This document shows positions 41,261 to 64,000 of a DNA stretch of 64,000 nt, piece by piece; position 1 is the stretch's first letter; each line of letters opens with the position of its first letter. The translations under genes were made by a program, and so were the position numbers. The notes below the pieces were generated by a model. It was not told where the DNA came from. It did no database searches and was given only the letters and a program-made list of their open reading frames with translations. The stretch lies in assembly GCF_050920415.1 (NCBI RefSeq), contig NZ_CP169309.1. One strand, 5' to 3'. Source of the DNA: Escherichia coli (GTDB taxonomy: Bacteria > Pseudomonadota > Gammaproteobacteria > Enterobacterales > Enterobacteriaceae).

Positions 41261-42799
41261 ATGCAACAACCTGTAGTTCGCGTTGGCGAATGGCTTGTTA
41301 CTCCGTCCATAAACCAAATTAGTCGCAATGGGCGTCAACTTACCCTTGAGCCGAGATTAATCGATCTTCTGGTTTTCTTTGCTCAACACAGTGGCGAAGT
41401 ACTTAGCAGGGATGAACTTATCGATAATGTCTGGAAGAGAAGTATTGTCACCAATCACGTTGTGACGCAGAGTATCTCAGAACTACGTAAGTCATTAAAA
41501 GATAATGATGAAGATAGTCCTGTCTATATCGCTACTGTACCAAAGCGCGGCTATAAATTAATGGTGCCGGTTATCTGGTACAGCGAAGAAGAGGGAGAGG
41601 AAATAATGCTATCTTCGCCTCCCCCTATACCAGAGGCGGTTCCTGACACAGATTCTCCCTCCCAAAGTCTTAACATTCAAAGCACCGCAACACCACCTGA
41701 ACAATCCCCAGTTAAAAGCAAACGATTCACTACCTTTTGGGTATGGTTTTTTTTCCTGTTGTCGTTAGGTATCTGTGTAGCACTGGTAGCGTTTTCAAGT
41801 CTTGATACACGTCTTCCTATGAGCAAATCGCGTATTTTGCTCAATCCACGCGATATTGACATTAATATGGTAAATAAAAGTTGTAACAGCTGGAGTTCCC
41901 CGTATCAGCTCTCTTACGCGATAGGCGTGGGTGATTTGGTGGCGACATCACTTAACACCTTCTCCACCTTTATGGTGCATGACAAAATCAACTACAACAT
42001 TGATGAACCGAGCAGTTCCGGTAAAACATTATCTATTGCGTTTGTTAATCAGCGCCAATACCGTGCTCAACAATGCTTTATGTCGGTAAAATTGGTAGAC
42101 AATGCAGATGGTTCAACCATGCTGGATAAACGTTATGTCATCACTAACGGTAATCAGCTGGCGATTCAAAATGATTTACTGGAGAGTTTATCAAAAGCGT
42201 TAAACCAACCGTGGCCACAACGAATGCAGGAGATGCTCCAGCAAATTTTGCCGCATCGTGGTGCGTTATTAACTAATTTTTATCAGGCTCATGATTATTT
42301 ACTGCATGGCGATGATAAATCATTGAACCGTGCCAGTGAATTACTAGGTGAGATTGTTCAATCATCCCCCGAATTTACCTACGCGAGAGCAGAAAAAGCA
42401 TTAGTTGATATCGTGCGCCATTCTCAACATCCTTTAGATGAAAAACAATTAGCAGCACTGAATACAGAAATAGATAACATTGTTACACTGCCGGAATTGA
42501 ACAACCTGTCCATTATATATCAAATAAAAGCGGTCAGTGCTCTGGTAAAAGGTAAAACAGATGAGTCTTACCAGGCGATAAATACTGGCATTGATCTTGA
42601 AATGTCCTGGCTAAATTATGTGTTGCTTGGCAAGGTTTATGAAATGAAGGGGATGAACCGGGAAGCAGCTGATGCATATCTCACCGCCTTTAATTTACGC
42701 CCAGGGGCAAACACCCTTTACTGGATTGAAAATGGTATATTCCAGACTTCTGTTCCTTATGTTGTACCTTATCTCGACAAATTTCTCGCCTCAGAATAA
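41261..42799 (+). CDS. cadC: Membrane-integrated transcriptional activator CadC (ToxR-like)
   Basis: 512-aa ORF MQQPVVRVGEWLVTPSINQISRNGRQLTLEPRLIDLLVFF...; winged-helix N-terminus, single TM, periplasmic sensor. Confidence 0.95.
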   Translation: MQQPVVRVGEWLVTPSINQISRNGRQLTLEPRLIDLLVFFAQHSGEVLSRDELIDNVWKRSIVTNHVVTQSISELRKSLKDNDEDSPVYIATVPKRGYKLMVPVIWYSEEEGEEIMLSSPPPIPEAVPDTDSPSQSLNIQSTATPPEQSPVKSKRFTTFWVWFFFLLSLGICVALVAFSSLDTRLPMSKSRILLNPRDIDINMVNKSCNSWSSPYQLSYAIGVGDLVATSLNTFSTFMVHDKINYNIDEPSSSGKTLSIAFVNQRQYRAQQCFMSVKLVDNADGSTMLDKRYVITNGNQLAIQNDLLESLSKALNQPWPQRMQEMLQQILPHRGALLTNFYQAHDYLLHGDDKSLNRASELLGEIVQSSPEFTYARAEKALVDIVRHSQHPLDEKQLAALNTEIDNIVTLPELNNLSIIYQIKAVSALVKGKTDESYQAINTGIDLEMSWLNYVLLGKVYEMKGMNREAADAYLTAFNLRPGANTLYWIENGIFQTSVPYVVPYLDKFLASE

Positions 42800-42874
42800 G
42801 TGACTCCCGGGTTGACTCATGCTCGGGAATATTTGTTGTTGATTTTTTGTATGTTATTGTTGATATAATATGTT

Positions 42875-42900
42875 GCGGCAATTTATTTGCCGCATATTTT
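42875..42900 (+). terminator. Terminator-like hairpin after cadC
   Basis: GCGGCAAAT-TT-ATTTGCCGC followed by a T-rich run. Confidence 0.5.
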
Positions 42901-42989
42901 TTATAACAGAAATTTAACCGAAAAACATCTCTTAATTCATTGTAAATATTGAATGTTTATCTTTTCATGATATCAACTTGCGATCCTGA

Positions 42990-43163
42990 TGTGTTAATAA
43001 AAAACCTCAAGTTCTCACTTACAGAAACTTTTGTGTTATTTCACCTAATCTTTAGGATTAATCTTTTTTTTTGAGTAATCTTGTCGCCAGTTTGGTCTGG
43101 TCAGTAAATAGTTACGCATCATGACCCGGACTCCAAATTCAAAAATGAAATTAGGAGAAGAGC
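42990..43163 (+). promoter_or_regulatory. cadBA promoter region (Pcad), CadC-dependent
   Basis: AT-rich region directly upstream of cadB; individual CadC sites not resolved by eye. Confidence 0.4.
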
Positions 43164-44498
43164 ATGAGTTCTGCCAAGAAGATCGGGCTATTTGCCTGTA
43201 CCGGTGTTGTTGCCGGTAATATGATGGGGAGCGGCATTGCATTATTGCCTGCGAACCTTGCAAGTATCGGTGGTATTGCTATCTGGGGTTGGATTATCTC
43301 TATTATTGGTGCAATGTCGTTGGCTTATGTATATGCCCGACTGGCAACAAAAAACCCGCAACAAGGTGGCCCAATTGCTTATGCCGGAGAAATTTCTCCT
43401 GCATTTGGTTTTCAGACAGGTGTTCTTTATTACCATGCTAACTGGATTGGTAACCTGGCGATTGGTATTACCGCTGTATCTTATCTTTCCACCTTCTTCC
43501 CTGTATTAAATGATCCTGTTCCGGCGGGTATCGCTTGTATTGCTATCGTCTGGGTATTTACCTTTGTAAATATGCTCGGCGGTACCTGGGTAAGCCGTTT
43601 AACCACTATTGGTCTGGTGCTGGTTCTTATTCCTGTAGTTATGACTGCTATTGTTGGCTGGCATTGGTTTGATGCTGCAACTTATGCTGCTAACTGGAAT
43701 ACCGCAGGTACTACTGATGGTCATGCGATCATTAAAAGTATTCTGCTCTGCCTGTGGGCCTTCGTGGGTGTTGAATCCGCAGCGGTAAGTACTGGTATGG
43801 TTAAAAACCCGAAACGTACCGTTCCGCTGGCAACCATGCTGGGTACTGGTTTAGCAGGTATTGTTTACATCGCTGCGACTCAGGTGCTTTCCGGTATGTA
43901 TCCGTCTTCTGTAATGGCAGGCTCCGGTGCTCCGTTTGCAATCAGTGCTTCTACTATCCTGGGTAACTGGGCTGCGCCGATGGTTTCTGCATTCACCGCT
44001 TTTGCGTGCCTGACTTCTCTGGGTTCCTGGATGATGCTGGTAGGTCAGGCAGGTGTGCGTGCCGCTAACGACGGTAACTTCCCGAAAGTTTATGGTGAAG
44101 TCGACAGCAACGGTATTCCGAAAAAAGGTCTGCTGCTGGCTGCAGTGAAAATGACTGCCCTGATGATCCTCATCACTCTGATGAACTCTGCCGGTGGTAA
44201 AGCATCTGACCTGTTCGGTGAACTGACCGGTATCGCAGTACTGCTGACTATGCTGCCGTACTTCTACTCTTGCGTTGACCTGATTCGTTTTGAAGGCGTT
44301 AACATCCGCAACTTTGTCAGCCTGATCTGCTCTGTACTGGGTTGCGTGTTCTGCTTCATCGCGCTGATGGGCGCAAGCTCCTTCGAGCTGGCAGGTACCT
44401 TCATCGTCAGCCTGATTATCCTGATGTTCTACGCTCGCAAAATGCACGAGCGCCAGAGCCACTCAATGGATAACCACACAGCGTCTAACGCACATTAA
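43164..44498 (+). CDS. cadB: Lysine/cadaverine antiporter CadB
   Basis: 444-aa APC-family ORF MSSAKKIGLFACTGVVAGNMMGSGIALLPANLA... Confidence 0.95.
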   Translation: MSSAKKIGLFACTGVVAGNMMGSGIALLPANLASIGGIAIWGWIISIIGAMSLAYVYARLATKNPQQGGPIAYAGEISPAFGFQTGVLYYHANWIGNLAIGITAVSYLSTFFPVLNDPVPAGIACIAIVWVFTFVNMLGGTWVSRLTTIGLVLVLIPVVMTAIVGWHWFDAATYAANWNTAGTTDGHAIIKSILLCLWAFVGVESAAVSTGMVKNPKRTVPLATMLGTGLAGIVYIAATQVLSGMYPSSVMAGSGAPFAISASTILGNWAAPMVSAFTAFACLTSLGSWMMLVGQAGVRAANDGNFPKVYGEVDSNGIPKKGLLLAAVKMTALMILITLMNSAGGKASDLFGELTGIAVLLTMLPYFYSCVDLIRFEGVNIRNFVSLICSVLGCVFCFIALMGASSFELAGTFIVSLIILMFYARKMHERQSHSMDNHTASNAH

Positions 44499-44577: not shown

Positions 44578-46725
44578 ATGAACGTTATTGCAATATTGAA
44601 TCACATGGGGGTTTATTTTAAAGAAGAACCCATCCGTGAACTTCATCGCGCGCTTGAACGTCTGAACTTCCAGATTGTTTACCCGAATGACCGTGACGAC
44701 TTATTAAAACTGATCGAAAACAATGCGCGTCTGTGCGGTGTTATTTTTGACTGGGATAAATATAATCTCGAGCTGTGCGAAGAAATTAGCAAAATGAACG
44801 AGAACCTGCCGTTGTACGCGTTCGCTAATACGTATTCCACTCTCGATGTCAGCCTGAATGACCTGCGTTTACAGATTAGCTTCTTTGAATATGCGCTGGG
44901 TGCTGCTGATGATATTGCTAACAAGATCAAGCAGACCACTGACGAATATATCAACACTATTCTGCCTCCGCTGACCAAAGCACTGTTTAAATATGTTCGT
45001 GAAGGTAAATATACTTTCTGTACTCCTGGTCACATGGGCGGTACTGCATTCCAGAAAAGCCCGGTAGGTAGCCTGTTCTATGATTTCTTTGGTCCGAACA
45101 CCATGAAATCTGATATTTCCATTTCAGTATCTGAATTGGGTTCTCTGCTGGATCACAGCGGTCCGCACAAAGAAGCAGAACAGTATATCGCTCGCGTATT
45201 TAACGCAGACCGCAGCTACATGGTGACCAACGGTACTTCCACTGCGAACAAAATTGTTGGTATGTACTCTGCTCCGGCAGGCAGCACCATTCTGATTGAC
45301 CGTAACTGCCACAAATCGCTGACCCACCTGATGATGATGAGCGATGTTACGCCAATCTATTTCCGCCCGACCCGTAACGCTTACGGTATTCTTGGTGGTA
45401 TCCCACAGAGTGAATTCCAGCACGCTACCATTGCTAAGCGCGTAAAAGAAACACCAAACGCGACCTGGCCGGTACATGCCGTAATTACTAACTCTACCTA
45501 TGATGGCCTGCTGTACAACACCGACTTCATCAAGAAAACACTGGATGTAAAATCCATCCACTTTGACTCCGCGTGGGTGCCTTACACCAACTTCTCACCG
45601 ATTTACGAAGGTAAATGCGGTATGAGCGGTGGCCGTGTAGAAGGGAAAGTGATTTACGAAACCCAGTCTACTCACAAACTGCTGGCGGCGTTCTCTCAGG
45701 CTTCCATGATCCACGTTAAAGGTGATGTAAACGAAGAAACCTTTAACGAAGCCTACATGATGCACACCACCACTTCTCCGCACTACGGTATCGTGGCGTC
45801 CACTGAAACCGCTGCGGCGATGATGAAAGGTAATGCTGGTAAGCGTCTGATCAACGGTTCCATTGAACGTGCGATCAAGTTCCGTAAAGAGATCAAACGC
45901 CTGAGAACGGAATCTGATGGCTGGTTCTTTGATGTATGGCAGCCGGATCATATCGATACCACTGAATGCTGGCCGCTGCGTTCTGACAGCTCCTGGCACG
46001 GCTTCAAGAACATCGACAATGAGCACATGTATCTTGACCCGATCAAAGTCACCCTGCTGACCCCGGGGATGGAAAAAGACGGCACCATGAGCGACTTTGG
46101 TATTCCGGCCAGCATCGTGGCGAAATACCTCGACGAACATGGCATCGTTGTTGAGAAAACCGGCCCGTATAACCTGCTGTTCCTGTTCAGCATCGGTATT
46201 GATAAGACCAAAGCATTGAGCCTGCTGCGTGCTCTGACTGACTTCAAACGTGCGTTCGACCTGAACCTGCGTGTGAAAAACATGCTGCCGTCTCTGTATC
46301 GTGAAGATCCTGAATTCTATGAAGATATGCGTATTCAGGAACTGGCTCAGAATATCCACAAACTGATTGTTCACCACAATCTGCCGGATCTGATGTATCG
46401 CGCATTTGAAGTGCTGCCGACAATGGTAATGACTCCGTATGCTGCGTTCCAGAAAGAGCTGCACGGTATGACCGAAGAAGTTTACCTCGACGAAATGGTA
46501 GGTCGTATTAACGCCAATATGATCCTTCCGTATCCGCCGGGAGTTCCTCTGGTAATGCCGGGTGAAATGATCACCGAAGAAAGCCGTCCGGTGCTGGAGT
46601 TCCTGCAGATGCTGTGTGAAATCGGCGCTCACTATCCGGGCTTTGAAACCGATATTCACGGTGCATACCGTCAGGCTGATGGTCGCTATACCGTTAAGGT
46701 ATTGAAAGAAGAAAGCAAAAAATAA
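44578..46725 (+). CDS. cadA: Inducible lysine decarboxylase CadA
   Basis: ORF-track 728 aa; start set at MNVIAILNHMGVYFKEEPIREL... (715 aa); PLP fold. Confidence 0.96.
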   Translation: MNVIAILNHMGVYFKEEPIRELHRALERLNFQIVYPNDRDDLLKLIENNARLCGVIFDWDKYNLELCEEISKMNENLPLYAFANTYSTLDVSLNDLRLQISFFEYALGAADDIANKIKQTTDEYINTILPPLTKALFKYVREGKYTFCTPGHMGGTAFQKSPVGSLFYDFFGPNTMKSDISISVSELGSLLDHSGPHKEAEQYIARVFNADRSYMVTNGTSTANKIVGMYSAPAGSTILIDRNCHKSLTHLMMMSDVTPIYFRPTRNAYGILGGIPQSEFQHATIAKRVKETPNATWPVHAVITNSTYDGLLYNTDFIKKTLDVKSIHFDSAWVPYTNFSPIYEGKCGMSGGRVEGKVIYETQSTHKLLAAFSQASMIHVKGDVNEETFNEAYMMHTTTSPHYGIVASTETAAAMMKGNAGKRLINGSIERAIKFRKEIKRLRTESDGWFFDVWQPDHIDTTECWPLRSDSSWHGFKNIDNEHMYLDPIKVTLLTPGMEKDGTMSDFGIPASIVAKYLDEHGIVVEKTGPYNLLFLFSIGIDKTKALSLLRALTDFKRAFDLNLRVKNMLPSLYREDPEFYEDMRIQELAQNIHKLIVHHNLPDLMYRAFEVLPTMVMTPYAAFQKELHGMTEEVYLDEMVGRINANMILPYPPGVPLVMPGEMITEESRPVLEFLQMLCEIGAHYPGFETDIHGAYRQADGRYTVKVLKEESKK

Positions 46726-46783: not shown

Positions 46784-48241
46784 ATGAAAACACCCTCACA
46801 GCCGCGCGCGATATACTATATCGTGGCGATCCAAATCTGGGAGTACTTCAGTTTTTACGGCATGCGTGCCTTACTCATTCTCTACCTCACCCATCAGCTT
46901 GGTTTTGATGATAACCATGCCATCAGTCTGTTCAGCGCATATGCTTCTCTGGTTTACGTTACCCCTATTCTCGGCGGCTGGCTTGCCGACCGCCTGCTCG
47001 GCAACCGCACTGCAGTGATTGCCGGCGCGCTGTTAATGACCCTTGGCCATGTGGTGCTGGGCATTGATACAAATTCAACCTTTAGCCTGTATCTGGCGCT
47101 GGCAATCATTATTTGTGGCTACGGTTTATTCAAATCGAACATCAGCTGTTTGCTTGGCGAGCTCTATGCCCCTGACGATCATCGACGTGATGGCGGTTTT
47201 TCGCTGCTGTATGCTGCGGGCAATATCGGTTCTATCGCAGCCCCCATCGCCTGCGGTCTGGCTGCTCAGTGGTATGGATGGCATGTTGGCTTTGCCCTTG
47301 CGGGTGGTGGCATGTTTATCGGTTTGTTGATTTTCTTAAGCGGTCATCGTCATTTCCAGTCAACGCGTAGTATGGATAAAAAAGCGCTCACTCGCGTGAA
47401 ATTTGCCTTACCGGTATGGAGCTGGTTAGTGGTGATGCTCTGTTTAGCCCCAGTATTTTTTACCCTACTGCTGGAGAACGACTGGTCCGGATATTTGCTG
47501 GCGATCGTTTGCCTTATTGCTGCACAAATCATTGCCCGCATGATGATCAAATACCCCGAACACCGTCGTGCTCTTTGGCAAATAGTATTGTTGATGCTTG
47601 TCGGAACGTTGTTCTGGGTACTGGCACAACAGGGCGGCAGCACCATCAGCTTGTTTATCGATCGCTTTGTGAATCGTCAGGCATTCAATATTGAAGTGCC
47701 GACTGCGCTATTCCAGTCAGTGAATGCGATTGCAGTGATGCTCGCTGGGGTTGTTCTGGCCTGGCTGGCGTCGCCAGAAAGCCGCGGCAATTCAGCATTG
47801 CGCGTCTGGCTGAAGTTTGCCTTTGGCTTACTGCTGATGGCTTGTGGCTTTATGTTGCTGGCATTTGATGCCCGACATGCAGCGGCTGGCGGTCAAGCGT
47901 CAATGGGCGTGATGATATCCGGGCTGGCGCTAATGGGCTTTGCCGAACTCTTTATTGACCCGGTGGCGATTGCGCAAATCACGCGTCTGAAAATGTCTGG
48001 CGTATTAACCGGTATTTATATGCTGGCAACAGGCGCGGTCGCCAACTGGCTGGCAGGCGTCGTGGCACAGCAGACGACAGAGTCGCAAATTAGCGGAATG
48101 GCAATTGCAGCTTACCAGCGATTCTTTTCTCAGATGGGAGAGTGGACGTTGGCTTGTGTCGCGATCATCGTGGTATTGGCCTTTGCTACCCGTTTTCTGT
48201 TTAGCACGCCGACGAATATGATACAGGAGAGCAACGATTAA
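46784..48241 (+). CDS. dtpC: Dipeptide/tripeptide:H+ symporter DtpC (YjdL), POT family
   Basis: 485-aa [39 protein letters not shown]... Confidence 0.92.
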
Positions 48242-48477: not shown

Positions 48478-49995
48478 ATGTCTGAACGAGAAACACGGGG
48501 AGCCAATGAGGCTATTGATTTTAACGATGAACTGAGAAATCGCCGCGAAAAACTGGCAGCACTGCGTCAGCAAGGTGTGGCGTTTCCTAATGATTTTCGC
48601 CGCGACCATACCTCTGACCAGTTGCACGAAGAGTTTGATGCGAAGGATAACCAGGAACTGGAATCCTTAAACATTGAAGTCTCGGTTGCTGGCCGAATGA
48701 TGACCCGTCGTATCATGGGGAAAGCCTCCTTTGTAACGTTGCAGGATGTCGGTGGCCGTATTCAACTGTACGTTGCACGAGATAGCCTGCCAGAAGGTGT
48801 TTATAACGATCAGTTTAAAAAATGGGACCTCGGCGACATTATCGGTGCCCGCGGTACGCTGTTTAAGACGCAAACGGGTGAACTTTCCATTCACTGTACT
48901 GAGCTGCGCCTGCTGACTAAAGCACTACGTCCTTTACCAGATAAATTCCATGGTCTGCAGGATCAGGAAGTCCGTTATCGTCAACGTTATCTGGACCTCA
49001 TCGCTAACGATAAATCCCGTCAAACGTTTGTTGTCCGTTCAAAAATTCTGGCCGCTATCCGCCAGTTCATGGTCGCGCGCGGCTTTATGGAAGTAGAAAC
49101 CCCGATGATGCAGGTAATTCCAGGTGGGGCATCTGCTCGCCCGTTTATTACCCATCATAATGCTCTGGATTTGGATATGTACCTGCGTATTGCGCCGGAG
49201 CTATATCTGAAACGTCTGGTTGTAGGTGGTTTTGAACGGGTATTCGAAATCAACCGTAACTTCCGTAATGAAGGTATTTCTGTTCGTCATAATCCTGAGT
49301 TCACGATGATGGAACTCTACATGGCGTATGCGGATTACCACGATTTGATTGAACTGACGGAATCACTGTTCCGCACTCTGGCACAAGAGGTACTGGGTAC
49401 CACTAAAGTCACTTATGGCGAGCATGTGTTTGATTTCGGCAAACCGTTTGAAAAACTCACCATGCGCGAAGCAATCAAAAAATATCGTCCAGAAACCGAT
49501 ATGGCGGACCTGGATAATTTTGATGCTGCTAAAGCATTAGCTGAATCTATCGGAATTACGGTAGAGAAAAGCTGGGGGCTGGGACGCATTGTCACGGAGA
49601 TCTTTGATGAAGTGGCAGAAGCACATCTGATTCAGCCAACCTTTATCACGGAATATCCGGCAGAAGTGTCACCGCTGGCGCGCCGTAATGATGTTAACCC
49701 GGAAATCACCGACCGTTTTGAATTCTTCATCGGTGGTCGTGAAATCGGTAATGGTTTTAGCGAATTAAACGACGCAGAAGATCAGGCGGAACGTTTCCAG
49801 GAACAGGTTAACGCTAAAGCTGCAGGTGACGACGAAGCCATGTTCTATGACGAAGATTACGTGACTGCGCTGGAATATGGTCTGCCGCCAACCGCGGGTC
49901 TGGGTATTGGTATCGACCGAATGATTATGCTGTTTACTAACAGTCATACTATTCGCGACGTTATTCTCTTCCCGGCGATGCGTCCACAGAAATAA
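48478..49995 (+). CDS. lysU: Lysine--tRNA ligase, heat-inducible (LysU)
   Basis: ORF-track 514 aa; start set at [33 protein letters not shown]...; class II aaRS motifs; identified as lysU by its position next to cadBA/dtpC. Confidence 0.93.
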
Positions 49996-50287: not shown

Positions 50288-50314
50288 TTTTTATGTTCTT
50301 CTTATCCTTCCTGA

Positions 50315-51113: not shown

Positions 51114-51124
51114 TTTACCCTCGC

Positions 51125-54451: not shown

Positions 54452-55792
54452 ATGTTATTTACTATCCAACTTATCATAATACTGATATGTCTGTTTTATG
54501 GTGCCAGAAAGGGCGGTATCGCGCTGGGTTTATTAGGCGGTATCGGCCTGGTCATTCTGGTCTTTGTCTTCCACCTTCAGCCAGGTAAACCACCGGTTGA
54601 TGTCATGCTGGTTATCATTGCGGTGGTGGCGGCATCGGCGACCTTGCAAGCTTCGGGCGGTCTTGATGTCATGCTGCAAATTGCCGAGAAGCTGCTGCGC
54701 CGCAATCCGAAATATGTCTCCATTGTCGCACCGTTTGTAACCTGCACGCTGACCATTCTTTGCGGTACGGGCCACGTGGTTTACACCATTCTGCCGATCA
54801 TCTACGACGTTGCTATTAAGAACAACATCCGTCCGGAACGTCCGATGGCGGCAAGTTCTATCGGTGCACAGATGGGGATTATCGCAAGCCCAGTGTCGGT
54901 TGCGGTCGTATCTCTGGTTGCGATGCTGGGTAATGTCACCTTTGATGGTCGCCATCTTGAGTTCCTCGACCTGCTGGCAATCACCATTCCATCGACGTTA
55001 ATCGGTATCCTGGCGATCGGTATCTTCAGTTGGTTCCGCGGTAAAGATCTGGATAAAGATGAAGAGTTCCAGAAATTCATCTCCGTACCGGAAAACCGTG
55101 AGTATGTTTACGGTGATACCGCGACGCTGCTGGATAAAAAACTGCCGAAAAGCAACTGGCTGGCAATGTGGATCTTCCTCGGGGCAATCGCTGTAGTTGC
55201 ACTTCTTGGTGCTGATTCGGACCTGCGTCCATCCTTCGGTGGCAAACCGCTGTCGATGGTACTGGTTATTCAGATGTTTATGCTGCTAACCGGAGCGCTG
55301 ATTATTATCCTGACCAAAACCAATCCCGCGTCTATCTCAAAAAACGAAGTCTTCCGTTCCGGTATGATCGCCATCGTGGCGGTGTACGGTATCGCATGGA
55401 TGGCGGAAACCATGTTCGGTGCGCATATGTCTGAAATTCAGGGCGTACTGGGTGAAATGGTGAAAGAGTATCCGTGGGCCTATGCCATTGTTCTGCTGCT
55501 GGTTTCCAAGTTTGTAAACTCTCAGGCCGCGGCGCTAGCGGCGATTGTTCCGGTCGCGCTGGCGATCGGCGTTGACCCGGCATACATCGTGGCTTCAGCA
55601 CCGGCTTGCTATGGTTATTACATCCTGCCGACTTATCCGAGCGACCTGGCAGCGATTCAGTTTGACCGTTCCGGCACCACCCACATCGGTCGCTTCGTCA
55701 TCAACCACAGCTTTATTCTGCCGGGGTTGATTGGTGTGAGCGTATCGTGCGTCTTCGGCTGGATCTTCGCTGCGATGTACGGGTTCTTATAA
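54452..55792 (+). CDS. dcuB: Anaerobic C4-dicarboxylate antiporter DcuB
   Basis: 446-aa [29 protein letters not shown]...; Dcu family. Confidence 0.95.
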
Positions 55793-55869: not shown

Positions 55870-57516
55870 ATGTCAAACAAACCCTTTATCTACCAGGCAC
55901 CTTTCCCGATGGGGAAAGACAATACCGAATACTATCTACTCACGTCCGATTACGTTAGCGTTGCCGACTTCGACGGCGAAACAATCCTGAAAGTGGAACC
56001 AGAAGCCCTGACTCTGCTGGCGCAGCAAGCCTTCCACGACGCTTCTTTCATGCTCCGCCCGGCACACCAGAAACAGGTTGCTGCAATTCTTCACGATCCA
56101 GAAGCCAGCGAAAACGACAAGTACGTGGCGCTGCAATTCTTAAGAAACTCAGAAATCGCCGCCAAAGGCGTGCTGCCAACCTGCCAGGATACCGGCACCG
56201 CGATCATCGTCGGTAAAAAAGGTCAGCGCGTGTGGACCGGCGGCGGTGATGAAGAAGCGCTGTCGAAAGGCGTCTATAACACCTATATCGAAGATAACCT
56301 GCGCTATTCACAGAATGCGGCGCTGGACATGTACAAAGAGGTCAACACCGGCACTAACCTGCCTGCGCAAATCGACCTGTACGCGGTAGATGGCGATGAG
56401 TACAAATTCCTCTGCGTCGCCAAAGGCGGTGGCTCTGCCAATAAAACGTATCTCTACCAGGAAACCAAAGCCCTGCTGACTCCCGGCAAACTGAAAAACT
56501 TCCTCGTTGAGAAAATGCGTACCCTCGGTACTGCAGCCTGCCCGCCGTACCATATCGCGTTTGTGATTGGCGGTACGTCTGCGGAAACCAACCTGAAAAC
56601 CGTCAAGTTAGCAAGCGCTCACTATTACGATGAACTGCCGACCGAAGGGAACGAACATGGTCAGGCGTTCCGAGATGTCCTGCTTGAACAGGAACTGCTG
56701 GAAGAGGCCCAGAAACTCGGCCTTGGCGCGCAGTTTGGCGGTAAATACTTCGCGCACGACATCCGCGTGATCCGTCTGCCACGTCACGGCGCATCCTGCC
56801 CGGTAGGTATGGGCGTCTCCTGCTCCGCTGACCGTAACATTAAAGCGAAAATCAACCGCGAAGGTATCTGGATCGAAAAACTGGAACACAATCCAGGCCA
56901 GTACATTCCACAAGAACTGCGTCAGGCTGGTGAAGGCGAAGCGGTGAAAGTCGACCTTAACCGCCCGATGAAAGAGATCCTCGCCCAGCTTTCGCAATAC
57001 CCGGTATCCACCCGTTTGTCGCTCACCGGCACTATTATCGTGGGTCGCGATATTGCACATGCCAAGCTGAAAGAGCTGATTGACGCCGGTAAAGAACTGC
57101 CGCAGTACATCAAAGATCACCCGATCTACTACGCGGGTCCGGCGAAAACGCCTGCCGGTTATCCATCAGGTTCACTTGGCCCAACCACCGCAGGTCGTAT
57201 GGACTCCTACGTGGATCTGCTGCAATCCCACGGCGGCAGCATGATCATGCTGGCGAAAGGTAACCGCAGTCAGCAGGTCACCGACGCGTGTCATAAACAC
57301 GGCGGCTTCTACCTCGGTAGTATCGGCGGTCCGGCGGCGGTACTGGCGCAGCAGAGCATCAAGCATCTGGAATGCGTCGCTTATCCGGAGCTGGGTATGG
57401 AAGCTATCTGGAAAATCGAAGTAGAAGATTTCCCGGCGTTTATCCTGGTCGATGACAAAGGCAACGACTTCTTCCAGCAAATCGTCAACAAACAGTGCGC
57501 GAACTGCACTAAGTAA
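55870..57516 (+). CDS. fumB: Class I (Fe-S) fumarate hydratase, anaerobic (FumB)
   Basis: 548-aa [40 protein letters not shown]... Confidence 0.96.
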
Positions 57517-57638: not shown

Positions 57639-58289
57639 ATGACCCGCACACTCAAGCCGTTAATTCTTAACACCGGCGCACTGGCGCTAACGTTAATCCT
57701 GATTTATACCGGCATTTCGGCCAATGACAAACTCACCTGGCTGATGGAAGTGACACCGGTGATTATTGTCGTGCCGCTACTGCTTGCCACCGCTAAACGT
57801 TATCCGTTAACGCCGCTGCTCTATACGCTCATTTTCTTTCACGCCATCATCCTGATGGTCGGCGGGCAATACACCTACGCGAAAGTCCCCGTTGGTTTTG
57901 AGGTGCAGGAATGGCTGGGGTTGAGCCGTAATCCGTATGACAAGCTGGGGCATTTTTTCCAGGGGCTGGTGCCTGCACTGGTGGCGCGAGAAATTCTCGT
58001 TCGCGGGATGTACGTGCGCGGACGTAAAATGGTGGCGTTTCTGGTCTGCTGCGTGGCGCTGGCGATAAGCGCGATGTATGAATTAATCGAGTGGTGGGCA
58101 GCGCTGGCAATGGGTCAGGGAGCGGATGATTTTCTCGGTACCCAGGGCGACCAATGGGACACACAATCCGATATGTTCTGCGCGCTGCTTGGTGCATTAA
58201 CTACGGTGATATTCCTTGCTCGCTTTCATTGCCGCCAGCTACGGCGCTATGGCTTAATCACCAGAGCGCCGGAAGCGATTACCTCTTAA
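57639..58289 (+). CDS. yjdF: Inner membrane protein YjdF (DUF2238)
   Basis: 216-aa hydrophobic ORF MTRTLKPLILNTGALALTLILIYTG...; stop codon overlaps the melA stop. Confidence 0.8.
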   Translation: MTRTLKPLILNTGALALTLILIYTGISANDKLTWLMEVTPVIIVVPLLLATAKRYPLTPLLYTLIFFHAIILMVGGQYTYAKVPVGFEVQEWLGLSRNPYDKLGHFFQGLVPALVAREILVRGMYVRGRKMVAFLVCCVALAISAMYELIEWWAALAMGQGADDFLGTQGDQWDTQSDMFCALLGALTTVIFLARFHCRQLRRYGLITRAPEAITS

Positions 58290-59641
58290 CGGTGTAACCA
58301 GCCTGGCAGCCAGTCGCCGTGGGCGGCAATCAGGTCGTCAATAAGAGCATAGATTTCATCAATGCCCAGCACGGCAGCGGTATGTGGGTCCATCATCGCG
58401 GCATGGTAAACACGGTCGCGATTTTCTGTGAGAATGGCTTCCGTCAGCAGCGTCTGTACGTTGATATTGGTTTGCATCAGGGCGGCCAGATGCGAAGGTA
58501 GCGTACCGACTTTGGTCGGCTGAATGCCATTAGCATCAACTAAACAGGCCACTTCCACGCAACATCCTTGTGGCAGGTTATCAATCAAACCATCGTTACG
58601 GACGTTGCCATAAATCACACTCGGCTCGCCAGTCCAGATAGCGTTCATGATTGTGCTGGCATATTCCCGTGACGGTTTAATATCAATCCGGGAGGCGTTC
58701 TTATACTCCTCCAGCTCTTTATGCCAGTTTGCCAATTGTTCGACGCAGCGTTTCGGGTACTCATCCAGCGGCACTTTATAACGCTCAATCAAATCCTCAC
58801 GACCAGGCTTAATAAACCACGGTGTGTATTCAGCAAAATGTTCTGACGATTCCGTGACGAAGTAGCCCAGCTTTTTGAACATTTCATAACGCACAATATT
58901 CTGGCAGCGAGTATTGCCATGAATATTCGGCTTCGGTGCCTGCCCTGCGTCATACGCTGCCAGCAGTTCTGGGTAGAGATTCACGTAACTGCCGTCGGCG
59001 GTTTTGCGCTCCAGTTCCAGGTAAAACGCCATATGGTTGATACCCGCGCAACGGTAACGCAACGTAGCTGGGTCGATATTGAGATCACGCGCCAGCTCTT
59101 CCGCCGTTCCCTGCACCGAATGGCACAGCCCTACCTGTTTGATATGCGGATAGCGGGCATACATCGCCCAGGTATTCATCGCCATTGGGTTAACATAGTT
59201 GAGCATAGTGGCATCGGGGCAGACTTCCGTCATGTCCTCGCAAATTTGCCACAGGTGCGGAATGGTACGTAGCGCGCGCATAATACCGCCCGGCCCCAAC
59301 GTATCGGCAATGGTTTGTTCCAGACCGTGGCGCTTACAGACCTCAAAATCAGTCACCGTGCAAGGTTCATAACCGCCAATCTGAAATGCCACTACGACAA
59401 AATCGGCATCCTGTAAGGCTTCTTTCTGTTGGGTGTGGCAGGTGATTTTGCCACTGGCCCCCGCTGAATCCATCAGCTTGCGCACCACAATGTGCGACTC
59501 TTCCAGGCGGATGGGATCAATGTCCATCAGGGCAATATGCGCCGTTTTTAGCGCCTCGCGATGGAACACATCACCAAGAATATTTTTAACGAAAATCGTC
59601 GAACCAGCGCCGATAAATGTAATTTTAGGTGCAGACATCAT
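58286..59641 (-). CDS. melA: Alpha-galactosidase (melibiase) MelA, NAD/Mn-dependent GH4
   Basis: 451-aa ORF MMSAPKITFIGAGSTIFVKNILGDVF... ending ...DWLPGWLHR. Confidence 0.95.
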   Translation of the reverse strand: MMSAPKITFIGAGSTIFVKNILGDVFHREALKTAHIALMDIDPIRLEESHIVVRKLMDSAGASGKITCHTQQKEALQDADFVVVAFQIGGYEPCTVTDFEVCKRHGLEQTIADTLGPGGIMRALRTIPHLWQICEDMTEVCPDATMLNYVNPMAMNTWAMYARYPHIKQVGLCHSVQGTAEELARDLNIDPATLRYRCAGINHMAFYLELERKTADGSYVNLYPELLAAYDAGQAPKPNIHGNTRCQNIVRYEMFKKLGYFVTESSEHFAEYTPWFIKPGREDLIERYKVPLDEYPKRCVEQLANWHKELEEYKNASRIDIKPSREYASTIMNAIWTGEPSVIYGNVRNDGLIDNLPQGCCVEVACLVDANGIQPTKVGTLPSHLAALMQTNINVQTLLTEAILTENRDRVYHAAMMDPHTAAVLGIDEIYALIDDLIAAHGDWLPGWLHR

Positions 59642-59923
59642 GCAGATCTCCTGGCTTGCTTGAATAACTTCATCATGGCAGGCGAATCTGCAGAAAACCT
59701 CCGGCTTCCAGGCTGAGCATTCCCATTAACTCAGATCCTGTGTGAAGCATCAGAAAATCTGAGTTTATGGGAATAAATTAGCTGAAAAGCAGAGTTTTCG
59801 GCCTCATGGTACTCGGATGATCCCTTCGCCCCTCAGGCAAGAGGGCGAAAACCGTGCTCCCACTCGCAGTCATATTCCTACACTCCTGCCATAATTCTGA
59901 TATTCCAGGAAAGAGAGTCATCC
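59642..59923. promoter_or_regulatory. Divergent melR / melA promoter region
   Basis: Intergenic region between divergent melA and melR; individual MelR and CRP sites not resolved by eye. Confidence 0.4.
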
Positions 59924-60832
59924 ATGAATACAGATACTTTTATGTGTAGCAGCGACGAAAAACAGACCCGCAGTCCGCTGTCGCTGTATTCGGAATACCA
60001 GCGGATGGAGATTGAGTTTCGCGCACCGCATATCATGCCCACCAGCCACTGGCATGGTCAGGTCGAAGTGAATGTGCCTTTCGATGGCGATGTGGAATAC
60101 CTGATCAACAATGAAAAAGTGAGTATCAATCAGGGACATATCACGCTGTTCTGGGCCTGTACACCGCACCAACTAACAGATACCGGAACCTGTCAGAGCA
60201 TGGCGATTTTTAATCTGCCGATGCATCTGTTTCTCTCCTGGCCGCTGGATAAAGACCTGATTAACCACGTCACTCACGGCATGGTGATTAAATCACTGGC
60301 GACACAGCAACTTAGCCCGTTTGAAGTGCGCCGCTGGCAGCAGGAATTGAACAGTCCGAACGAGCAAATTCGCCAGCTCGCCATTGATGAAATTGGCCTG
60401 ATGCTCAAGCGATTTAGCCTCTCTGGCTGGGAACCGATTCTGGTCAATAAAACCTCGCGCACACACAAAAACAGCGTCTCGCGCCATGCGCAATTTTATG
60501 TCAGCCAGATGCTGGGCTTTATTGCCGAAAACTATGATCAGGCGCTGACCATCAACGATGTGGCTGAGCACGTCAAACTTAACGCCAACTATGCAATGGG
60601 GATATTCCAGCGGGTCATGCAATTGACGATGAAACAGTACATTACCGCGATGCGCATCAACCACGTTCGCGCGTTACTGAGCGATACCGATAAAAGTATT
60701 CTCGATATTGCCCTGACGGCAGGCTTTCGTTCGAGTAGCCGTTTTTACAGCACGTTCGGCAAATATGTCGGCATGTCACCGCAACAATACCGCAAACTTA
60801 GCCAACAGCGCCGCCAGACGTTTCCCGGCTAA
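59924..60832 (+). CDS. melR: AraC-family melibiose operon activator MelR
   Basis: 302-aa ORF MNTDTFMCSSDEKQTRSPLSLYSEYQRMEIEF..., C-terminal AraC HTH. Confidence 0.93.
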   Translation: MNTDTFMCSSDEKQTRSPLSLYSEYQRMEIEFRAPHIMPTSHWHGQVEVNVPFDGDVEYLINNEKVSINQGHITLFWACTPHQLTDTGTCQSMAIFNLPMHLFLSWPLDKDLINHVTHGMVIKSLATQQLSPFEVRRWQQELNSPNEQIRQLAIDEIGLMLKRFSLSGWEPILVNKTSRTHKNSVSRHAQFYVSQMLGFIAENYDQALTINDVAEHVKLNANYAMGIFQRVMQLTMKQYITAMRINHVRALLSDTDKSILDIALTAGFRSSSRFYSTFGKYVGMSPQQYRKLSQQRRQTFPG

Positions 60833-61030
60833 AGACGATATCAGTATCAGCCAAAAAAATAGTTTAGCCGTCGATAATAAGCAGTGAAAATAAATCAAAA
60901 TAATCACATAACATATTGTTTATAAAAATGAATATTTAAAAAATGTTTGTTTTTCATGCGCTTTACAGCCCGAAAAGGCCGGAAGATACTTGCCCGCAAC
61001 GAAGATTCCTTCATAACCGGGTAAGCAATG

Positions 61031-63298
61031 ATGAAAGTATTAATTGTTGAAAGCGAGTTTCTCCATCAGGACACCTGGGTCGGTAACGCCGTTGAGCGTC
61101 TGGCAGGGGCTTTAAGCCAGCAAAATGTTACCGTGATTAAATCCACCTCCTTTGATGATGGCTTTGCCATTCTCTCTTCAAACGAAGCCATTGACTGCCT
61201 GATGTTCAGCTATCAAATGGAACATCCGGACGAACATCAAAACGTCAGACAATTGATCGGTAAGCTTCATGAGCGCCAACAAAACGTGCCGGTCTTCCTG
61301 TTGGGCGATCGGGAAAAAGCCCTCGCCGCAATGGACCGAGATCTGCTGGAGCTTGTCGATGAATTCGCCTGGATTCTGGAAGATACCGCCGACTTTATCG
61401 CCGGACGCGCCGTTGCCGCAATGACCCGCTACCGCCAGCAGCTGTTGCCGCCACTGTTCAGCGCGCTGATGAAATATAGCGACATCCATGAATATTCCTG
61501 GGCAGCGCCAGGCCACCAGGGCGGCGTTGGCTTTACCAAAACACCCGCCGGACGTTTCTACCATGACTACTATGGTGAAAATCTGTTCCGCACCGACATG
61601 GGCATCGAACGGACTTCCCTCGGTTCTTTGCTTGACCATACTGGCGCATTTGGCGAAAGCGAAAAATATGCCGCACGCGTATTTGGTGCCGATCGCTCCT
61701 GGTCGGTAGTCGTCGGTACTTCCGGCTCTAACCGTACCATCATGCAGGCTTGCATGACCGATAACGATGTAGTGGTCGTTGACCGTAACTGCCATAAATC
61801 CATCGAACAAGGCTTGATGCTGACAGGCGCGAAACCGGTCTACATGGTGCCAAGCCGCAACCGCTACGGCATTATCGGGCCAATTTATCCGCAGGAAATG
61901 CAACCTGAAACCTTGCAGAAGAAAATCAGTGAAAGCCCGCTGACCAAAGACAAAGTCGGGCAAAAACCGTCTTACTGCGTGGTGACCAACTGCACCTATG
62001 ACGGCGTGTGTTATAACGCTAAAGAAGCGCAGGATCTGCTGGAAAAAACTTCCGATCGTCTGCACTTTGACGAAGCCTGGTACGGCTATGCACGTTTCAA
62101 CCCGATCTATGCCGATCACTATGCCATGCACGGTGAACCTGGCGATCACAACGGTCCTACCGTTTTCGCCACCCACTCAACCCACAAACTGCTGAATGCG
62201 CTGTCACAGGCCTCTTACATTCATGTGCGTGAAGGTCGTGGGGCGATTAACTTCTCCCGCTTTAATCAGGCATACATGATGCATGCCACCACCTCCCCGC
62301 TGTATGCCATCTGTGCATCTAACGACGTGGCGGTGTCGATGATGGACGGCAACAGTGGCCTGTCACTGACCCAGGAAGTGATCGACGAAGCGGTTGATTT
62401 CCGTCAAGCGATGGCACGGCTGTATAAAGAGTTCACCCATGACGGTAGCTGGTTCTTCAAACCGTGGAACAAAGAAGTGGTCACCGATCCACAAACCGGC
62501 AAAACCTACGACTTTGCTGACGCGCCAACCAAACTGCTGACCACCGTTCAGGATTGCTGGGTAATGCATCCGGGCGAAAGCTGGCACGGCTTCAAAGATA
62601 TTCCGGATAACTGGAGTATGCTCGACCCAATTAAAGTCAGCATTCTCGCACCGGGAATGGGTGAAGATGGTGAACTGGAAGAAACCGGTGTTCCGGCGGC
62701 GCTGGTCACAGCCTGGCTTGGTCGCCACGGCATTGTGCCTACCCGTACCACTGACTTCCAAATTATGTTCCTGTTCTCTATGGGCGTGACCCGTGGGAAA
62801 TGGGGAACTCTGGTTAACACCCTTTGCTCCTTCAAACGCCACTATGATGCCAACACACCGCTGGCGCAGGTGATGCCGGAACTTGTTGAACAATATCCTG
62901 ACACTTACGCGAACATGGGGATTCACGATCTGGGTGACACCATGTTTGCCTGGCTGAAAGAAAACAACCCTGGCGCACGGTTGAACGAAGCCTATTCCGG
63001 CCTGCCGGTGGCGGAAATCACCCCGCGTGAAGCGTACAACGCAATTGTCGATAACAATGTCGAACTGGTATCCATTGAAAATCTGCCTGGACGCATCGCG
63101 GCAAACTCAGTTATCCCGTATCCGCCAGGAATCCCGATGCTACTGTCTGGTGAAAACTTCGGCGATAAAAACAGTCCACAGGTAAGTTATTTACGCTCCC
63201 TGCAATCCTGGGACCATCATTTCCCTGGATTTGAACACGAAACTGAAGGGACTGAAATTATTGACGGTATTTACCACGTCATGTGTGTGAAAGCGTAA
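61031..63298 (+). CDS. adiA: Biodegradative arginine decarboxylase AdiA
   Basis: ORF-track 756 aa; start set at second Met (MKVLIVESEFLHQDTWVGNAVERLA...); PLP fold paralogous to CadA. Confidence 0.96.
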   Translation: MKVLIVESEFLHQDTWVGNAVERLAGALSQQNVTVIKSTSFDDGFAILSSNEAIDCLMFSYQMEHPDEHQNVRQLIGKLHERQQNVPVFLLGDREKALAAMDRDLLELVDEFAWILEDTADFIAGRAVAAMTRYRQQLLPPLFSALMKYSDIHEYSWAAPGHQGGVGFTKTPAGRFYHDYYGENLFRTDMGIERTSLGSLLDHTGAFGESEKYAARVFGADRSWSVVVGTSGSNRTIMQACMTDNDVVVVDRNCHKSIEQGLMLTGAKPVYMVPSRNRYGIIGPIYPQEMQPETLQKKISESPLTKDKVGQKPSYCVVTNCTYDGVCYNAKEAQDLLEKTSDRLHFDEAWYGYARFNPIYADHYAMHGEPGDHNGPTVFATHSTHKLLNALSQASYIHVREGRGAINFSRFNQAYMMHATTSPLYAICASNDVAVSMMDGNSGLSLTQEVIDEAVDFRQAMARLYKEFTHDGSWFFKPWNKEVVTDPQTGKTYDFADAPTKLLTTVQDCWVMHPGESWHGFKDIPDNWSMLDPIKVSILAPGMGEDGELEETGVPAALVTAWLGRHGIVPTRTTDFQIMFLFSMGVTRGKWGTLVNTLCSFKRHYDANTPLAQVMPELVEQYPDTYANMGIHDLGDTMFAWLKENNPGARLNEAYSGLPVAEITPREAYNAIVDNNVELVSIENLPGRIAANSVIPYPPGIPMLLSGENFGDKNSPQVSYLRSLQSWDHHFPGFEHETEGTEIIDGIYHVMCVKA

Positions 63299-63414
63299 CC
63301 ACTATTCCGCTGAAGGCGTAATTGTTAAATAACATTACGCCGCCTGGCTTGAGGCCCTTTTAGTATGGCAACGTTTTCATAAAAATTGCTGCAAACAAAA
63401 ATGTCATACTTTTT

Positions 63415-63440
63415 GCGCGGTCCCACCCCGCGCTTTTTTT
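63415..63440 (+). terminator. Rho-independent terminator after adiA
   Basis: Hairpin GCGCGG-TCCCACC-CCGCGC followed by TTTTTTT. Confidence 0.65.
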
Positions 63441-63621
63441 CGCCTGTTATTTATCCTGTAAAAAAATATGTACATGAGAAATTACTATAAAAATTTGTAA
63501 TATTAGTAAAACTCGTTATTTTTATGCATGTTTATATTCATCATACAATTATATAACCATTTCCCGGTATCGCTTTGCTTTAGCGAGAACTGGTCTTTTA
63601 TTCGCACTCAGGAGTACATGT

Positions 63622-64000
63622 ATGAGGATTTGCAGCGACCAACCTTGTATTGTTTTATTGACTGAAAAAGATGTCTGGATAAGGGTGAATGGGAAAGAAC
63701 CTATTAGCCTTAAAGCTAACCATATGGCGTTATTAAATTGTGAAAATAATATTATCGACGTCTCCTCTCTTAATAACACTTTGGTTGCTCATATTAGTCA
63801 CGACATCATCAAAGATTACCTCCGGTTTCTGAATAAAGATCTCTCGCAAATACCAGTATGGCAACGTAGTGCTACGCCCATCCTCACCCTGCCATGCCTG
63901 ACGCCAGACGTCTTTCGCGTTGCCGCGCAACATAGCATGATGCCCGCTGAAACTGAGTCAGAAAAGGAACGAACACGTGCATTATTATTCACTGTGCTAT
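63622..64000 (+). CDS. adiY: AraC-family regulator AdiY (partial; continues beyond window end)
   Basis: ATG at 63622 opens MRICSDQPCIVLLTEKDVWIRVNGKEPISLKANHMALLNCENN...; no stop within the window, so absent from the ORF track. Confidence 0.8.
   Translation, partial: MRICSDQPCIVLLTEKDVWIRVNGKEPISLKANHMALLNCENNIIDVSSLNNTLVAHISHDIIKDYLRFLNKDLSQIPVWQRSATPILTLPCLTPDVFRVAAQHSMMPAETESEKERTRALLFTVL

Follow-up and report, generated by a model that had tools for sequence, protein, structure and literature searches.

Gene content of the segment

The window analysed here is a stretch of 64,000 nucleotides of Escherichia coli DNA, and the segment considered below occupies its positions 41261-64000. Gene coordinates were obtained from a list of open reading frames, by carrying over the annotation of two E. 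coli records that are nearly identical to the window, and by tblastn with K-12 proteins. Immediately upstream of the cad block, before 41261, there is a tRNA-Phe gene (pheU, 40554-40629, + strand; Rfam tRNA, 68.3 bits) that is annotated in both E. coli records and in K-12.

The block begins with cadC (41261-42799, + strand), the gene for the membrane-bound ToxR-like activator of cadBA, a protein of 512 aa with 98.8% identity to K-12 CadC that scored 754 bits against the NCBIfam CadC equivalog (cut-off 400). It has the architecture of a ToxR-like regulator, in which the Pfam domains Trans_reg_C (residues 24-100) and CadC_C1 (191-324) are separated by the hydrophobic stretch FTTFWVWFFFLLSLGICVALVAF, and the polyproline SSPPPIPE is present. 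The cadC-cadB spacer (42800-43163, + strand) is 364 bp long, as in K-12, and 91.8% identical to it; by this homology it probably holds the Pcad promoter region. The lysine:cadaverine antiporter gene cadB (43164-44498, + strand) gives a product 99.3% identical to that of K-12 (NCBIfam cadaverine/lysine antiporter equivalog, 916 bits), and a score of 484 bits with TIGR00905 (cut-off 409) places it in the basic amino acid/polyamine antiporter (APA) subfamily of the APC transporters. There follow, all on the + strand, cadA (44578-46725) for the inducible lysine decarboxylase LdcI (715 aa, 99.6% to K-12), dtpC (yjdL, 46784-48241) for a POT-family di/tripeptide permease (98.4% to K-12; Pfam PTR2) and lysU (48478-49995) for the inducible lysyl-tRNA synthetase (505 aa; Pfam tRNA-synt_2 and anticodon OB fold). 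The PGAP name for the last of these is 'lysS', and it was assigned to lysU from its position and its 99.8% identity to K-12 LysU. In K-12, cadC-cadBA specifies a lysine decarboxylase and a lysine/cadaverine antiporter that are induced by low pH and lysine. The window does not show the 'black hole' deletion of the cad operon that is typically found in Shigella and EIEC.

Two short gene pairs on the - strand separate lysU from the dcu genes. The first is the type V toxin-antitoxin pair ghoT (50114-50287) and ghoS (50315-50611), both 100% identical to K-12 and annotated in the two E. coli records, and the second comprises yjdJ (GNAT family, 50841-51113, 97.8%) and yjdI (51125-51355, 100%). The C4-dicarboxylate two-component system is encoded on the + strand by dcuS (51536-53167, 99.8% to K-12) and, downstream of it and overlapping it by 4 nt, the cognate regulator gene dcuR (53164-53883, 99.6%); the Pfam domains of DcuS (sCache_3_2, PAS, SPOB_a and HATPase_c) and DcuR (Response_reg) are those of the CitA/DcuS type. 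The dcuR-dcuB spacer (53884-54451, + strand), by homology the dcuB promoter region, is 568 bp long (570 bp in K-12) and 94% identical; in the otherwise identical strain MFDS1022581 an IS2 transposase is annotated there. The anaerobic C4-dicarboxylate antiporter gene dcuB (54452-55792, + strand; 100% to K-12, Pfam DcuA_DcuB) is followed by fumB (55870-57516, + strand; 99.6% to K-12, Pfam Fumerase and Fumerase_C), the product of which is a class I (Fe-S) fumarate hydratase that scored higher on NCBIfam PRK15391 (1292 bits, cut-off 1094) than on the FumA model (1211 bits). In K-12, dcuSR with dcuB-fumB provide a fumarate-sensing two-component system, an anaerobic C4-dicarboxylate antiporter and an anaerobic fumarase. 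The paralogue dcuA (36408-37709, + strand; 433 aa, 99.8% to K-12) lies outside the segment and is preceded by aspA (34854-36290). Both Dcu proteins matched TIGR00770 (674 bits for DcuB and 696 for DcuA, cut-off 331), and DcuB also matched PF03605 (487 bits).

Beyond the mel genes, which are treated separately, the segment ends in adiA (61031-63298, + strand) for the inducible arginine decarboxylase (755 aa, 99.3% to K-12) and in the 5' half of adiY (63622-64000, + strand; codons 1-126 of 253, with residues 1-126 of K-12 AdiY matching at 100% by tblastn). The window end cuts off the rest of adiY, and adiC lies outside. The adiA product of K-12 is an arginine decarboxylase induced anaerobically at low pH. 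The genes named in a preliminary description of this DNA (cadC, cadBA, lysU, dcuSR, dcuB, fumB, adiA and adiY) are all on the + strand where it had put them, except that adiY is only half inside the window. Genes of the interval that it did not list are dtpC, ghoT/ghoS, yjdJ, yjdI, yjdF, melA and melR.

Conservation among E. coli genomes

By sequence comparison, 41261-64000 is the ordinary 93-94 min segment of the E. coli chromosome, in intact form. A full-length match was found in 5425 of the 5426 complete E. coli genomes, and K-12 was colinear with the window save for one deletion, that of melB, at an overall DNA identity of 97%. The view that the systems here are established and nothing in them novel, put forward when the DNA was first described, is therefore upheld. 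Apart from the truncated adiY, the named genes and dcuA were all full length by tblastn, with 98.8-100% protein identity to K-12; across the segment no frameshifts were seen, proteins were 96.6-100% identical and the intergenic promoter spacers were colinear with those of K-12. Strain MFDS1022581 was 100% identical across all 22.7 kb of the segment and 2013C-4282 was 99.0% identical. A scan of the whole window at the Rfam gathering threshold returned only three tRNAs and a guanidine-II riboswitch upstream of gdx, with no structured RNA inside 41261-64000. The segment can thus be taken for E. coli core genome of the standard kind, completely annotated and with its cad, dcu and adi systems intact; it is already known, and its interest is as context only.

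A mel locus without melB

The absence of melB is a structural difference from K-12 that the preliminary description had missed. In a blastn comparison of the window with K-12, a junction of 23 bp (58263-58285) stood in place of 1668 bp, and the K-12 sequence replaced comprised the melA-melB spacer, melB, the melB-yjdF spacer and the last 6 nt of yjdF. Because the deletion remodelled its 3' end, yjdF (DUF2238; 57639-58289, + strand; NCBIfam PRK09867) has 216 aa instead of the 209 of K-12, with residues 1-208 being 96.6% identical and the tail reading GLITRAPEAITS up to the stop codon. Reduction of 1668 bp to 23 bp also means that the stop codons of yjdF and melA now overlap, in TTAA at 58286-58289. 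The alpha-galactosidase gene melA (58286-59641, - strand; 451 aa, 98.9% to K-12; NCBIfam alpha-galactosidase, 733 bits) is intact, as is melR (59924-60832, + strand; 302 aa, 99.7% to K-12), the gene for the AraC-family regulator of the mel operon. The locus is a melB-deletion allele and not a complete melAB operon, melA being intact and melB, which in K-12 lies between yjdF and melA, being absent. This is the one phenotype-relevant deviation from K-12, and it predicts impaired MelB-dependent uptake of melibiose despite intact melA and melR.

The same yjdF/melA junction occurred in 1264 of the 5426 complete E. coli genomes and so represents a common allele; melB is present in about 76% of E. 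coli. The junction was also found in other Escherichia species (Escherichia sp. E1V33 and E. whittamii), with a remnant in E. albertii. A literature search on a link between phylogroup and melB loss found no paper that combined all its terms. Two simple histories were rejected. Recent import of the K-12 melB from Salmonella or Citrobacter is not supported, the DNA being only 75-78% identical to theirs; the sequences flanking the melB site show 97.5-98% identity between melB+ K-12 and melB- LF82, and no divergent tract was seen in them. A single origin for all melB-less loci was rejected across genera, as the Citrobacter junctions differ, with the yjdF stop followed by a REP-like hairpin and then the melA stop.

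Paralogy of the Cad, Adi and Dcu proteins

The preliminary description had drawn attention to the co-location of the paralogues CadA and AdiA and of DcuA and DcuB. The coordinates given above confirm that both pairs lie close together, and pairwise alignment supported both claims of paralogy: CadA and AdiA were 36% identical over 740 columns (E=1e-162), and DcuA and DcuB were 36% identical with 59% positives over 404 columns (E=9e-80). Since CadB and AdiC (the latter taken from a 99%-identical strain) are also homologous (38% identity, E=1e-109), cad and adi are paralogous as whole decarboxylase-plus-antiporter modules.

Both decarboxylases have the three-domain architecture, with Pfam OKR_DC_1_N, OKR_DC_1 and OKR_DC_1_C all above the gathering score, and their STHK motifs aligned, QSTHKLL of CadA (K367) standing opposite HSTHKLL of AdiA (K386 in the 755-aa numbering); from published structures, we take these two residues to be the PLP lysines. 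CadA scored 1627 bits on the NCBIfam lysine decarboxylase model (cut-off 1056) and AdiA reached 1698 bits with the equivalog for arginine decarboxylase (cut-off 1167), and each fell below the cut-off on the model of the other, so that their assignment as Ldc and Adc is clear. Identity of more than 99% to the characterised K-12 enzymes suggests that enzymatic activity and acid induction would be shared. With the AdiA model CadA gave 572 bits, compared with 424 for the ODC model, and CadB gave 416 bits with the AdiC model, compared with 265 for PotE; by these profile scores, Cad and Adi are each other's nearest modules for both components. All three pairs (CadA/AdiA, CadB/AdiC and DcuA/DcuB) are true but ancient paralogues. 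In a published phylogeny the separation of Ldc from Adc falls deep within Proteobacteria, and ldcI is ancestral in several gammaproteobacterial families (PMC6257575); the split is far older than the genus Escherichia.

Gene order in other genera

Gene order outside E. coli was compared in 80 DcuB-centred loci from other species, with flanks of at most 10 kb. Across this sample, the arrangement dcuSR-dcuB-fumB...adiAYC was common to Escherichia, Salmonella and Citrobacter, whereas cadA-dtpC-lysU was found upstream of dcuS only in Escherichia loci with a long enough upstream flank. Two of these (L006 and L008) carry all three genes; another (L030), with an upstream flank of about 6 kb, has lysU onward, and that of L009, about 4 kb, reaches yjdJ only. 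The other two genera have unrelated genes before dcuS, Salmonella a gene for an Ig-repeat adhesin together with one regulated by SdiA, and Citrobacter a DMSO-reductase-like operon and NicO. In Enterobacterales farther removed, dcuB is present but none of these genes accompanies it. tRNA genes, as a sign of an integration site, were sought upstream of dcuS in the Salmonella and Citrobacter flanks and none were found. The content of these outgroups suggests that the cad block joined the dcuS neighbourhood in Escherichia, rather than having been lost elsewhere. With the adjacency of the block to dcuS confined to Escherichia, the proximity of cad and adi says little about a common origin or function.

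Why the paralogues lie together

We consider the best explanation, with a probability of roughly 0.88, to be that this is an ordinary E. coli segment of independently regulated known operons, the proximity of which is a matter of historical contingency. The dcuSR-dcuB-fumB-(yjdF)-(mel)-adiAYC linkage would date from the ancestor that Escherichia, Salmonella and Citrobacter have in common, and the cadCBA-dtpC-lysU-ghoST-yjdJI block would fill a variable interval between tRNA-Phe (pheU) and dcuS, where it is found only in Escherichia; neither local duplication nor shared regulation would then lie behind the present proximity. Pure chance is not a comfortable account. A simple calculation for a circle of 4.64 Mb gives p ~0.008 for a given pair of genes, here dcuA and dcuB, to fall within 18 kb of each other, and p ~0.07 for at least one pair among the five LAO decarboxylase genes to fall within 16.5 kb; the test is, however, post hoc.

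Two further readings go beyond the textbook view. On the first, the pheU-dcuS interval would be a lineage-variable insertion site at which Escherichia acquired a 'lysine-themed' set, cadCBA-dtpC-lysU, that selection then kept next to the other acid and anaerobic modules. On the second, the melB-less yjdF/melA junction would be ancestral in Escherichia; the melB found in about 76% of E. coli would then have been acquired anew or would be a trans-species polymorphism of long standing. We hold these readings to be tentative and rather unlikely.

It is also conceivable that selection maintains a supra-operonic cluster of genes induced at low pH or anaerobically (frdABCD, aspA-dcuA, cadBA, lysU, dcuSR-dcuB-fumB and adiAYC), which would benefit from having a chromosomal domain, a gene dosage or a nucleoid-protein environment in common. 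Most genes of anaerobic fumarate respiration are indeed in the 64-kb window (frdABCD at 21172-24483, aspA-dcuA, dcuSR and dcuB-fumB), together with two amino-acid-dependent acid-resistance modules, and the dcu-fumB-adi part has been kept in three genera; however, the linkage dissolves beyond Escherichia, Salmonella and Citrobacter, and unrelated genes (ghoST, mel genes, dsbD, cutA, groESL and ampC) intervene. The arrangement is nearly invariant over the 5426 E. coli genomes, but vertical descent alone predicts such invariance within a species, and each operon has its own dedicated regulator, as is well established for K-12. Selection of this kind therefore seems improbable.

The identities of the three pairs are strikingly alike (36%, 36% and 38%), and the order dcuA...cadBA runs parallel to dcuB...adiA-adiC, as a segmental duplication would leave; this runs counter to contingency. 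An ancient duplication of a Dcu transporter, a basic-amino-acid decarboxylase and an antiporter, giving rise to aspA-dcuA...cadBA and dcuB-fumB...adiA-adiC, would also account for three paralogue pairs on one strand with the Dcu gene before the decarboxylase module in both halves, for similar spacings (18.0 kb for dcuA-dcuB and 16.5 kb for cadA-adiA) and for the Cad and Adi modules being nearest to each other. Yet it is hardly credible. The restriction of this cad position to one genus already goes far to refute it, unrelated genes occupying the position in Salmonella and Citrobacter. In addition, the two modules run in opposite internal order (cadB-cadA but adiA-adiY-adiC), CadC (ToxR-like) and AdiY (AraC-like) are unrelated as regulators, and dcuB is without these neighbours in most of the Enterobacterales sampled. 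Ldc and Adc moreover separated well before Enterobacteriaceae (PMC6257575), and synteny would not be expected to last so long; together with the Escherichia-only adjacency of cad and dcuS, this older split led us to reject a duplication origin for the two halves. Historical contingency is thus the reading that we retain, and the proximity of the paralogues is no evidence of a recent duplication or of a shared regulon.

Comparison with known systems

The corresponding region of K-12 MG1655 (4,337,551-4,362,000) contains adiY-adiA-melR-melAB-yjdF-fumB-dcuB-dcuRS-yjdIJ-ghoST-lysU-dtpC-cadABC-pheU, numbered in the opposite direction so that the window has the reverse orientation. Gene content, order and relative orientation are alike and DNA identity is 97.0-97.6%; the differences are the 23 bp that replace the 1668 bp with melB and its flanking spacers, and the 7 additional codons of yjdF. 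MFDS1022581, 2013C-4282 and LF82 all lack melB and have the yjdF/melA junction of the window. The first of these differs by an extra IS2 between dcuR and dcuB, which the window does not have, and LF82, a strain of phylogroup B2, is only ~96% identical to the window across fumB-melR.

The '70mel' allele of E. coli O80:H2 is likewise a natural loss-of-melibiose-utilisation allele at the mel locus (PMC11945584). O80:H2 lacks the mel operon, searches for melA, melB and melR having all been negative, and has a fragment of 70 bp in its place, whereas the window has lost melB only, with a 23-bp junction and with melA and melR intact.

Among the wing-domain AAT-fold Lys/Arg/Orn decarboxylases (LdcI/CadA, LdcC, AdcI/AdiA, OdcI/SpeF and OdcC/SpeC), CadA and AdiA of the window have all three domains and the aligned PLP-lysine motif. 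No difference was seen from this family or from the APA-family antiporters (CadB, AdiC and PotE), of which the proteins of the window are type members.

Gene content of the segment and its surroundings

In a megablast search, 5425 of the 5426 complete E. coli genomes matched the segment at 41261-64000, and MFDS1022581 was the only one 100% identical to it, bar an extra IS2 in that strain; the next best genomes reached 99.0%. The whole window was colinear with K-12 MG1655 in reverse orientation (K-12 4,403,862 to 4,337,551), with 96-98% DNA identity. Genes were mapped by carrying over the annotation of the two closest records, by reference to the K-12 record and by tblastn with every K-12 protein. 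On the + strand were cadC (41261-42799), cadB (43164-44498), cadA (44578-46725), dtpC (46784-48241), lysU (48478-49995), dcuS (51536-53167), dcuR (53164-53883), dcuB (54452-55792), fumB (55870-57516), yjdF (57639-58289), melR (59924-60832), adiA (61031-63298) and the first 126 of the 253 codons of adiY (63622-64000); ghoT/ghoS (50114-50611), yjdJ/yjdI (50841-51355) and melA (58286-59641) were on the - strand. Upstream of the segment lay dcuA (36408-37709) and, from an Rfam scan, tRNA-Phe (pheU, 40554-40629).

All of the genes named in the preliminary description were thus found, with dcuA exactly where it had been placed, but the window ends within adiY and before adiC. As the mapped genes are full length except adiY, and their proteins 96.6-100% identical to those of K-12, the observation was confirmed. 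The architectures of CadC, DcuS/DcuR, FumB, LysU and DtpC were as expected (Pfam, NCBIfam). The segment is standard, already known E. coli core genome made up of intact textbook systems, in agreement with the earlier view that nothing in it was novel.

Since there was no departure from the K-12 systems, we infer from the >96% protein identity and the colinear promoter spacers that the mechanisms are those established in K-12. CadC would sense low pH and lysine and activate cadBA; CadA would use up one proton in decarboxylating lysine, and CadB would exchange cadaverine for lysine. AdiA and AdiC would have the equivalent role for arginine and agmatine when conditions are acid and anaerobic, with AdiY as regulator. 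External C4-dicarboxylates would be sensed by DcuS-DcuR, which would then switch on dcuB-fumB (and frdABCD) for fumarate respiration, and lysU would encode the stress-inducible lysyl-tRNA synthetase.

Several features of the window lie beside these systems. The IS2 of MFDS1022581 (15740-16968 of its record) is in the dcuR-dcuB spacer and none is present in the window, where this spacer (53884-54451) contains the dcuB promoter region and is unusually diverged from K-12 over its first 300 bp (90-94%). The frdABCD genes for fumarate reductase (21172-24483) encode proteins 100% identical to those of K-12 and, together with aspA-dcuA, dcuSR and dcuB-fumB, place most of the anaerobic fumarate-respiration genes inside ~36 kb. 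The genes for EF-P and the two enzymes that lysylate it, epmA (19873-20847), efp (27232-27795) and epmB (27837-28865), are 13-21 kb upstream of cadC; CadC contains a PPP motif (SSPPPIPE), which according to published work makes its translation EF-P dependent. With cadBA, dtpC and lysU, epmA and epmB form a 'lysine-themed' set within the window. A guanidine-II (mini-ykkC) riboswitch, usual in E. coli, is found upstream of gdx/sugE (26634-26680, - strand; Rfam 50.4 bits). Further differences from K-12 were two tandem tRNA-Gly genes only at 11209-11392, where K-12 has three (glyV, glyX and glyY) and one ~111 bp repeat unit is absent; the loss of ~273 bp between yjeO and yjeM (~18091-18100) and yjeN with it, YjeN giving no tblastn match in the window; and two more indels of ~140 bp, one in the epmB/yjeJ spacer near 28870 and one in the yjeJ/yjeI spacer near 30000.

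Paralogy of the decarboxylase and Dcu systems

Both proposed paralogies held when the alignments were run: CadA and AdiA were 36% identical over 740 columns (E=1e-162), an alignment that takes in the S-T-H-K PLP-lysine motif, and DcuA and DcuB 36% identical over 404 columns (E=9e-80). CadA and AdiA both contain the three Orn/Lys/Arg decarboxylase domains of Pfam, and both Dcu proteins matched Dcu family profiles (Pfam/NCBIfam). The paralogy proved wider than had been described, as CadB and AdiC were also homologous (38% identity, E=1e-109). In NCBIfam cross-scores, CadA scored higher on the AdiA model (572 bits) than on that of ODC (424), and CadB higher on AdiC (416) than on PotE (265), so that the nearest relative of each Cad component was its Adi counterpart rather than the ornithine system. 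Thus cad and adi are sister modules, each of a decarboxylase plus an antiporter. In a published phylogeny, lysine and arginine decarboxylases are more closely related to one another than either is to ornithine decarboxylases (PMC6257575). A third nearby pair of paralogues in the window is EpmA and LysU (32% identity, E=5e-45).

Proximity of cad and adi

By simple arithmetic on a 4.64-Mb circle, dcuA and dcuB would fall within 18 kb of each other with a chance probability of ~0.008, and some pair among the five LAO decarboxylase genes would be as close as 16.5 kb with a probability of ~0.07. The parallel order of the two halves, dcuA...cadBA and dcuB...adiA-adiC, and the near-equal identities of the paralogue pairs could suggest an old block duplication. 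This was examined in one DcuB-centred scan of species-representative genomes with 10-kb flanks, each locus being scored with the K-12 protein set. Escherichia loci (a genome labelled E. coli, Escherichia sp. E1V33, E. whittamii and E. albertii) matched the arrangement in the window over the length of flank available: cadA-dtpC-lysU was upstream of dcuS in L006 and L008, whereas the flank of L030 extended back to lysU only and a short E. albertii contig to yjdJ only. Salmonella and Citrobacter kept dcuSR-dcuB-fumB-(yjdF)-(mel)-adiA-adiY-adiC, but within the flanks scanned cadA, dtpC and lysU were not found upstream of dcuS; in S. enterica diarizonae the site instead held genes for an Ig-repeat adhesin and a CBM96 protein along with an SdiA-regulated gene, and in C. 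amalonaticus it held a DMSO-reductase-like operon and a NicO transporter. Presumably, cad in Salmonella sits at another site. In Klebsiella, Raoultella, Proteus, Serratia, Pectobacterium, Dickeya, Morganella and others, dcuB had none of these neighbours within the flanks scanned. In the published phylogeny, ldcI is ancestral in several gammaproteobacterial families (PMC6257575), and the Ldc/Adc split therefore long predates Escherichia. The cross-genus loci and this old split argue that the cad/adi proximity is an Escherichia-specific juxtaposition and no relic of duplication. The cad-dtpC-lysU-ghoST-yjdJI block occupies a variable interval between tRNA-Phe and dcuS, and the dcu-fumB-adi linkage is older than the placement of cad, though still limited to three genera.

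Many of the Citrobacter draft contigs stop at 250-650 bp upstream from dcuS, a sign that this position may hold a repeat or some other element that is difficult to assemble in this genus. No other intergenic stretch is as diverged from K-12 as the pheU-cadC spacer of the window (40630-41260; 88.4% identity, 25 gap positions). tRNA-Phe genes are common integration sites, and the K-12 spacer contains the yjdQ pseudogene, a remnant of a P4-like integrase; no inserted island was found at 40630-41260.

Loss of melB

The one real difference from K-12 in the segment is that melB, present in K-12, is missing. At 58263-58285, 23 bp stand in place of 1668 bp of K-12 between yjdF and melA, which comprise melB, the spacers on its two sides (melA-melB and melB-yjdF) and the final 6 nt of yjdF. 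The change gives yjdF a product of 216 rather than 209 aa, and the stop codons of yjdF and the convergent melA overlap in a TTAA (58286-58289; yjdF/melA junction, 58263-58289). The deletion allele is common in E. coli: its junction occurred in 1264 of the 5426 complete genomes, LF82 among them, and the melB segment in 4137. Escherichia sp. E1V33 and E. whittamii had an identical junction; E. albertii retained it together with 34 nt left over from the 3' end of melA, then a further deletion up to the melR-adiA spacer. The allele may be ancestral to the genus Escherichia. Four Citrobacter genomes with melA and melR also lacked melB, and as their junctions differ from those of Escherichia, these losses were independent. 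There was no sign of a recent import of melB, since the flanks of melB+ K-12 and melB- LF82 are 97.5-98% identical and K-12 melB has only 75-78% DNA identity to that of Salmonella and Citrobacter.

In the divergent melA/melR promoter spacer (59584-59923), LF82 had ~82% identity to the window and ~85% to K-12, far under the level of the flanks. In RefSeq, melR is 933 bp in LF82 and 2013C-4282 and 909 bp in K-12.

No paper on the melB-only allele by phylogroup was found in the literature searched. Besides the Escherichia-specific juxtaposition of cad and adi, the cross-species comparison adds that the strain has the common melB-deletion allele. It differs from that of O80:H2, in which the whole mel operon is absent with a 70-bp fragment instead (PMC11945584), whereas the window has lost melB only.
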